DNA from: Enterobacteria phage mEp043 c-1
Direction: 5' to 3' (one strand)
Length of the DNA stretch: 42,780 nt
Sequence record: NC_019706.1
How positions within the stretch are numbered: the stretch's first letter is position 1; the number at the start of each line of letters is the position of its first letter. Below are positions 30,223-30,677 of the stretch, piece after piece. A model generated the notes under the pieces. The model was not told the origin of the DNA, ran no database searches, and saw only the letters and a program-made list of their open reading frames with translations. The position numbers were made by a program, and so were the translations under genes.

Positions 30223-30384
30223 TTATTCGCATCGCATGACAACATCAAATTTTTCGAGATTACTTTGTCGCAACAATCCTTCTTCTACGCGGTCAGCTTT
30301 TCTATAATTATCAAATTCGAAATGTTTAATTACTTCTTTTGTTTCTCGCTCTATAACTTCAACAATGTATTTCTTATTCATCAT
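30223..30384 (-). CDS. Small hypothetical protein (53 aa), AT-rich moron
   Basis: ATG overlaps the upstream stop (ATGA); low GC relative to flanking phage genes. Confidence 0.4.
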   Translation of the reverse strand: MMNKKYIVEVIERETKEVIKHFEFDNYRKADRVEEGLLRQSNLEKFDVVMRCE

Positions 30385-30677
30385 TCTTCCCCAAGAGCTT
30401 TTCTGATTGCTGCAAGACCTTTATTAACAGTTCCATACCATTCTGGATATGTTGTCGTTGTTCTATTTTTGGTTTGCTTAAGTAATAACTGAAGTGCTTC
30501 GAGAAGGTCAGGTGCTGCCGCTATTAGATTGGCATCTTCAATGCATTGAACTTCCTCACAGATTGCAATATACGAACGCCAGCCTGCGCCATTTTCAAGT
30601 GAGTCTGCCTGGATGATTTTAATCTCATCGCCATCCATCATTATTTCCCACTTACCTTCAGTACCTTTAAATTCCAT
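30381..30677 (-). CDS. Hypothetical protein (98 aa)
   Basis: ORF in the N-to-terminator interval where lambda carries ral; no motif recognised. Confidence 0.5.
   Translation of the reverse strand: MEFKGTEGKWEIMMDGDEIKIIQADSLENGAGWRSYIAICEEVQCIEDANLIAAAPDLLEALQLLLKQTKNRTTTTYPEWYGTVNKGLAAIRKALGEE

Follow-up and report, generated by a model that had tools for sequence, protein, structure and literature searches.

The leftward pL operon of the lambdoid phage mEp043 carries a pair of real, horizontally mobile accessory genes of atypical composition, a 98-aa gene and an overlapping 53-aa gene, which lie one slot downstream of the place that ral takes in lambda. The reading that we prefer, tentatively, is that of a mobile accessory cassette of ~450 bp in the N-dependent delayed-early pL operon, which does not replace Ral and whose products may be protein binders serving host takeover or counter-defence. 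Three other readings, in which the pair substitutes for Ral, forms an obligate two-component or toxin-antitoxin unit, or is a moron expressed from the prophage, are each less likely than this operon-cassette model. Both genes are real but uncharacterised, and the cassette is ordinary phage accessory cargo. The features discussed are collected in Table 1, with positions given in the window, i.e. the whole stretch of 42,780 nucleotides analysed (NC_019706.1).

Region 30100-30950 is 100% identical to the record PV340537.1 of Escherichia phage mEp043. The order of genes in the window is cI-N-...-cIII-kil-bet, and the minus-strand genes annotated in GenBank are cI, a 104-aa ORF, N, three hypothetical proteins, a 322-aa coiled-coil protein named 'TolA', Kil and Bet, while a cIII ORF (28966..29097) exists in the window without a GenBank annotation. 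The stretch from N to cIII is hypervariable and also houses Ral, Kil, CIII and Gam/Abc. The product of the 322-aa gene, which RefSeq calls a 'coiled-coil domain-containing protein', is highly charged and rich in E, A, K and R; among related phages, this gene and ea10 alternate or co-occur in the same slot.

Table 1. Features of the cassette and its surroundings in the mEp043 window, with examples of natural variants of the 98-aa family.
Feature	Position	Strand	Basis and remarks
322-aa gene, 3′ of the terminator	29122-30090	-	phrog_1376, function unknown
Linker downstream of the cassette	30091..30190	-	Common to lambda (33911-34011) and phage 21, there between ral and ea10
Intrinsic terminator downstream of the cassette	30131..30110	-	TTGCCCTCtaatgtGAGGGCAA then T7; 8-bp stem, U7 tail; strong
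Hairpin directly after the stop of the 53-aa gene	30192..30217	-	RNA fold; 11-bp stem; cassette-specific; no T-run
53-aa gene (52 aa from the second ATG at 30381)	30223..30384	-	ORF; phrog_6949
98-aa gene	30381..30677	-	ORF; AGAGG Shine-Dalgarno 5 nt 5′ of the ATG
Linker upstream of the cassette	30685..30724	-	blastn and alignment with lambda and phage 21
Weak hairpin in the upstream linker	30724..30709	-	Terminator-like scan; GGCCGcatagtCGGCC then TTTATTTTT
ral slot	30742..30918	-	DUF7167 / phrog_8831-like ORF, frameshifted; phrog_8831 at 8.9e-25, weak DUF7167 match
Linker between N and the ral slot	30900-30945	-	Matches the lambda and phage 21 sequence between N and ral
Antiterminator N gene	30926..31252	-	Pfam N36 at 1.5e-26; GenBank annotation; marks the pL operon
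104-aa ORF with hydrophobic N-terminal segment	31730-32044	-	phrog_10450, function unknown
Natural C-module variants of the 98-aa family, examples			LLLKQTKNRTTTTYPEWY, AMLNKAYKQNWNDHYPDE

A first-pass annotation had described two coupled ORFs with a markedly lower GC content than their neighbours, and this description holds. The coordinates are exact and the two ORFs overlap in ATGA / TGATG (GAAGAATGATGAAT). Recalculation confirmed that the composition is non-uniform, as the 455 bp of the cassette have a GC content of 37.6% (40.7% for the 98-aa ORF and 31.5% for the 53-aa ORF, with a GC3 of 29% and 26%), compared to 50.8% for the whole window, 49.2% for N, 46.2% for the 322-aa gene and 43.1% for cI. 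When 455-bp windows were slid over the sequence, only 0.45% of them were equally AT-rich, and the most AT-rich of all (30034-30488) overlaps the cassette.

The smaller product matches phrog_6949 (3.4e-40, residues 2-53 against profile positions 1-52 of 52). Since the first ATG is replaced by GTG or ATT in many homologues, the conserved start is the second ATG, which gives the 52-aa protein annotated in GenBank. Its homologues form only 13 clusters, all from Enterobacteriaceae, with prophages of enterobacteria as their sole source, and the exact 53-aa sequence is found on at least 1000 contigs. Among 79 related IMG/VR loci, the gene occurs as 43 DNA variants, of which the close ones differ almost only synonymously. 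Divergent copies show 27-30 synonymous versus 8-21 non-synonymous differences (29 versus 8 in one example pair), with saturated dS and a dN of 0.07-0.18, and the gene is under strong purifying selection. The protein is hydrophilic and acidic (pI 5.8), and its AF2 model has a confident beta-beta-alpha-beta fold (pLDDT 93).

The 98-aa protein matches phrog_1273 over its entire length (3.1e-32, residues 1-98 of 98). A word-indexed search found 170 close homologues, which lie in prophages of Enterobacteriaceae; of the homologues listed, nearly all carry a precomputed PF27050 tag, and RefSeq gives the label 'XkdD/Y8K6 family phage-associated protein' to a homologue whose locus DNA is 99.8% identical over the 501-bp query. 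The membership in PF27050 rests on the PHROGs match, on the precomputed tags of homologues that are 54-97% identical and on the RefSeq name; the protein is an ordinary member of the PF27050 / phrog_1273 / XkdD/Y8K6 family. An exhaustive profile search at E<=1e-3 yielded 8140 cluster representatives (50% identity) and the family spans phyla. Most representatives are stand-alone proteins of 90-110 aa, and the few tandem duplicates (P0206, P0212) hint at dimers; some long repetitive proteins that resembled fusions (P0149, P0157, P0276) were rejected as low-complexity or fibronectin-repeat artefacts. When genome contigs were searched with the family alignment, only 4 loci were recovered because the back-translated patterns were too specific. 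Members are found in virulent myoviruses of Klebsiella, Proteus and Salmonella, and one lies in a Bacteroidota prophage beside a DNA methyltransferase and a YopX protein. The DNA of the cassette itself is present in 179 of 5426 complete E. coli genomes, and neither protein has a paralogue within the window.

Three motifs with invariant or near-invariant columns run through the family and recur in its distant members: KGTxGxW at the N-terminus, (E/N)DAxLIAAAP(D/E)LLEALQ, and AAIxKALGEE at the C-terminus. ST104 ORF18 (annotated in GenBank as similar to P22 orf78), BTP1_034 and mEp213_049 share with the mEp043 protein the full-length match, a size of ~95-105 aa, the three motifs and a location in early or accessory regions of temperate phages, and we saw no structural difference between the family and the 98-aa protein. 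The latter is hydrophilic and acidic (pI 4.6), and its AF2 model (pLDDT 71) consists of a beta meander and a helical hairpin (H44-70 and H77-95), in which the LIAAAPDLLEALQ motif starts helix 1 and AAIxKALGEE ends helix 2. The hairpin is confidently modelled, whereas the N-terminal half has a low pLDDT of about 50. A second, divergent PF27050 gene (motif TLITAVPELLEALQ) was observed downstream of kil in one related prophage (L025, about 5556, plus strand), and therefore the family can hold more than one place in a single pL operon. One 71% identical, Salmonella-like homologue comes from an 800-kb contig labelled Chryseobacterium sp. (L010, CACSKA010000001.1), probably a mislabelled or contaminated assembly.

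Both ORFs are short and lie in a region for which many overlapping ORFs are listed, so one or both could in principle be chance ORFs in an AT-rich spacer. The likelihood of this is negligible: the substitution pattern of the divergent 53-aa gene copies, the confident fold predicted for their product, PHROG matches that span the full length of both proteins and the thousands of 98-aa homologues across phyla, with motifs kept despite synonymous change, all argue against it. The chance-ORF reading is thus already refuted by the selection and homology data.

The site of the cassette was compared with lambda and phage 21 (phi21) by blastn and alignment. The 34 bp at 30685-30718 match those immediately 3′ of the ral stop codon in lambda (34055-34087) and phage 21. 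Between this block and the downstream linker, the gap is ~44 bp in lambda and phage 21 versus 495 bp in mEp043, and the extra DNA consists of the two-gene cassette, absent from both other phages, plus a few flanking bases. Hence, the cassette is a clean insertion of ~450 bp, one slot downstream of the ral slot. It had earlier been placed in the ral position; however, the linkers that flank ral align to 30900-30945 and 30685-30718, and the cassette lies past the second of these. Its placement between N and a tL1-like terminator is correct insofar as N is upstream and a strong terminator is downstream, but N is not directly adjacent, with a 51-aa ORF (30742..30897) and the weak hairpin with its T-run (30724..30709) in between, and it is doubtful whether the terminator should be labelled 'tL1-like'. 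In lambda, the terminators of the stretch from ral to bet are reportedly called the tL2 cluster (Luk and Szybalski 1983).

In mEp043, the gene in the ral slot is split between two frames: an ATG (30916) opens a frame of 22 codons, MERKFEIWLDSGAN being read in one frame up to a stop, and the remainder follows in another frame from a TTG at 30897. This frameshift reflects either a pseudogene or a sequencing error common to the deposited records. An intact 63-aa copy of the ORF is present in IMG/VR locus L029 (MERKFEIWLDSGANIHSCKK...LDWGWKEIK).

The same annotation proposed that the pair may be alternative host-modulating or anti-restriction factors, which can be read as a functional substitute for Ral that alleviates type I (or other) restriction-modification. 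In favour of such a substitute, mEp043 lacks an intact ral, its slot being filled by the frameshifted DUF7167-like ORF, both proteins are small, acidic and early-expressed, and known anti-defence genes (Ral, Abc, Gam) are nearby. The pair nevertheless occupies a slot of its own and stands beside ral in 17 of the 79 loci carrying the 53-aa gene, where the order is N - ral - PF27050 gene - 53-aa gene - ea10 and/or 322-aa gene - cIII - kil. In the P22-like phages ST104 (24 - sieB - ral - orf19 (pentapeptide repeats) - orf18 - 17) and BTP1 (N - ral - BTP1_034 - BTP1_033 - cIII), ral likewise co-occurs with the PF27050 gene. Since the two are found together in these loci and phages, the cassette is not an allele or a replacement of ral. 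The statement that neither product is Ral-like stands, as the Ral family gave no match in Pfam (E<=1) or NCBIfam; nor is either protein similar to another Pfam or NCBIfam family, and neither motif is listed in the supplements of one published phage accessory-gene screen. Lambda Ral shares with the cassette proteins the operon, the N-to-cIII neighbourhood, the small size, the early expression and the variable presence among lambdoid phages, but it differs in sequence, is basic (pI 8.8) where they are acidic, and precedes the linker downstream of which the cassette lies. A simple Ral-substitute reading is, in consequence of this co-occurrence and separate position, quite improbable.

Other genes were observed after N in related phages. 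The slot between N or ral and the PF27050 gene holds a 214-aa pentapeptide-repeat protein, a possible DNA mimic, in ST104 (orf19; L006 1817-2461), and a 207-aa Nmad5 'nucleotide modification associated' protein in APC_JM3.2 (gp51; L003 3112-3735) and in E. coli prophages such as locus L093, which GenBank mis-annotates as 'Smchd1'; SI8 has an HNH endonuclease after N. This stretch of the operon gathers candidate anti-defence genes. In mEp213 (L004, JQ182733.1 28604-33311), two N-type antiterminator genes lie in tandem modules: downstream of an HK244-like N come a 62-aa zinc-ribbon-like ORF, a PF27050 gene and the identical 53-aa gene, and downstream of an HK620-like N two other small ORFs. The linker/terminator block is also duplicated there (window 30124-30190 matches twice).

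We looked for signals that could make the cassette a transcription unit of its own. A consensus scan found no sigma-70-like promoter on the minus strand in 30680-30930 (weak or non-sigma-70 types being outside its reach), and promoter-like sites in the region number 3, versus 4.1 expected by chance. The upstream linker region folds no better than shuffled sequences (z -0.56). The RNA of 30095-30235 (minus strand), on the other hand, folds with a z of -4.0, and 0 of 200 shuffles were as good. The phage 21 annotation places the downstream terminator between ral and ea10; this terminator is part of the conserved backbone, and lambda and phage 21 have it while lacking the cassette. A search of Rfam over 29900-31700 gave just one sub-threshold chance match. 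The hairpin that follows the 53-aa gene (30192-30217) may serve in the processing or stabilisation of the pL RNA. It adjoins the 5′ side of the conserved block GGAGCAATGTCGCTCGTAAC; at the equivalent place (lambda 34011-34055), the inverted repeat of lambda and phage 21 is another one (GTGTATTCAT...GTGAATACAC). The structure, but not the sequence, of the post-stop inverted repeat is retained between mEp043 and these phages.

The term 'moron' in its strict sense, which the first-pass annotation had used, does not suit such an arrangement, given the missing sigma-70-like promoter upstream on the coding strand and a downstream terminator that is backbone common to lambda and phage 21. What the cassette does share with lambdoid morons in the Hendrix/Juhala sense is extra DNA of deviant composition, presence or absence among relatives and a precise intergenic joint. 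A classical moron would be transcribed on its own in the lysogen and would benefit the host or prophage, e.g. by superinfection exclusion or defence. The atypically low GC content, the polymorphic presence between otherwise similar phages and the hairpins on both sides are what such an element would lead one to expect; however, the upstream hairpin is weak, the orientation is that of the pL operon, the spacing is tight and PADLOC gave no matches. Together with the promoter and terminator results, this makes the moron reading very unlikely, and the cassette resembles accessory DNA embedded in an operon more than a self-contained transcription unit, with an expression that we infer to depend on pL and N antitermination, i.e. 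on lytic growth.

A better moron or defence candidate than the cassette is the 104-aa ORF coupled to cI. It overlaps cI by 4 nt at the stop codon, and a strong terminator (31718..31702) comes after it; neither Pfam nor PADLOC gave a match for it. Its position is like that of rexAB or BstA, and it is therefore probably co-transcribed with the repressor in the lysogen.

We then examined how tightly the two cassette genes are linked. An intact PF27050 gene lies directly upstream, with an overlap of 1 or 4 nt and whatever its module type, in 61 of the 72 loci in which the surroundings of the 53-aa gene could be evaluated; seven of the 72 have only a C-terminal remnant of 20-46 aa in this place, and four have an unrelated gene. 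In P22-like phages, the family gene is followed by other small ORFs (phrog_11224 in SI8 and ST104; BTP1_033) and not by the 53-aa gene. The two genes are mostly found as a pair but can be separated.

An obligate two-component module, be it a complex, a chaperone-client pair or a toxin-antitoxin or exclusion pair, would make the cassette one unit, as the overlapping stop and start codons, the adjacency in most loci regardless of the 98-aa module type and the conserved C-terminal AAIxKALGEE adjoining the junction might suggest. The distribution of the two genes makes this unlikely. The 98-aa family has ~8140 representatives against 13 clusters of the 53-aa protein (although from two different searches), and the 53-aa gene persists with a remnant or behind unrelated genes, just as P22-like phages put other small ORFs behind the family gene. 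Moreover, the 53-aa protein is nearly invariant while the modules of its partner vary, and hence there is no co-variation. Neither protein has homology to type II toxin-antitoxin systems in Pfam, NCBIfam or PADLOC or matches a defence family, and the pairing is not obligate as it is in type II systems, with 11/72 loci having a remnant or another gene upstream and P22-like phages having no 53-aa gene.

Variation within the 98-aa family is modular, the stretches between the motifs behaving as exchangeable modules and the tip of the helical hairpin being hypervariable. Among 137 close homologues, we distinguished 6 N-module and 25 C-module types, which occur in 30 combinations; the N-module of mEp043 is paired with 23 different C-modules and its C-module with 4 N-modules, and for one pair of module types all four combinations are seen (a four-gamete case). 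The modules reassort at the LIAAAPDLLEALQ motif, with DNA switch points inside the 40 bp that encode it. The motif carries synonymous differences between types, and it is therefore kept at the protein level. These features are shared with the modular genome hypothesis of recombination at linkers, in that short conserved linkers flank swappable cassettes (30900-30945, 30685-30724 and 30091-30190) and a conserved motif inside the 98-aa gene acts as an exchange point for N- and C-modules; the difference is that one joint falls within a small gene, giving two reassorting halves. A literature search found no description of such an intragenic joint for the PF27050 family.

The shuffling can be read in two ways. 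In one, which is speculative and rather unlikely as a whole, the family members would be a very widespread class of early phage proteins, acting as mix-and-match inhibitors with a constant helical base and two exchangeable specificity modules, the beta-meander N-module and the hypervariable hairpin tip, shuffled within the DNA that codes for the invariant LIAAAPDLLEALQ and directed against variable host (defence) proteins, and the 52-aa protein would be a co-factor in enterobacterial lambdoid phages. In the other, the shuffling could be homologous recombination at a conserved motif, without selection for diversity. The picture of a constant base and a variable tip is tentative because of the low confidence of the N-terminal half of the model.

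Searches for a function were negative. Pfam (E<=1) and NCBIfam contain no informative family for either protein, PHROGs returned only families of unknown function, and, with PADLOC included, no homology to a known anti-restriction or defence protein was found in these resources. Comparison with solved structures by single sequence and profile gave only chance matches (E>0.4), and Foldseek searches of the PDB with the two models found no match with an E below 0.3. No paper on the PF27050 family, its motifs or its name was found in the literature. A likeness of the 98-aa protein to Ead/Ea22, in that a Trp-bearing N-terminal part precedes an Ala-rich helix, is one of pattern only; the two are unrelated in the hhalign test, in which a profile comparison with lambda Ea22 gave a probability of 0.5%.

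The operon-cassette model that we prefer would work as follows. Transcription would occur only when N reads through the hairpin at 30724..30709, i.e. during lytic growth or induction, and the 98-aa gene would be translated from its own Shine-Dalgarno sequence and the 53-aa gene by coupling. By analogy with their neighbours Ral, Kil, CIII and Gam/Abc, both products would be small, soluble, acidic cytoplasmic proteins that bind other proteins. In the 98-aa protein, KGTxGxW, LIAAAPDLLEALQ and AAIxKALGEE would form the constant base, and the exchanged beta-meander N-module and the hypervariable hairpin tip would set the target specificity, while the 52-aa protein may be a small binder in its own right, conserved and usually accompanying the 98-aa gene. 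It is reasonable to guess at host modulation or counter-defence, since the cassette shares the N-to-cIII stretch with Ral, Kil, CIII and Gam/Abc, and the same analogy suggests host takeover or counter-defence as the role of both products, although guilt by association is weak evidence for function in a mosaic region.

In summary, this is an ordinary finding, another hypothetical accessory pair in the mosaic N-cIII stretch of a lambdoid phage, and both genes already had GenBank annotations and entries in PHROGs and Pfam. With the position now corrected, the stretch consists of three slots parted by conserved linkers, and such cassettes can therefore be compared cleanly across phages. Also useful is what was learnt of the family to which the 98-aa gene belongs: it is very large, with about 8000 clusters (50% identity) across phyla, and its members exchange halves at a conserved motif. 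The intragenic module shuffling in PF27050, together with the hypervariable tip, is the one feature that merits further attention. If an arms race lies behind this variability, anti-defence screens could well be aimed at the family, for which mEp043 and mEp213 on E. coli K-12 would offer a tractable test system.
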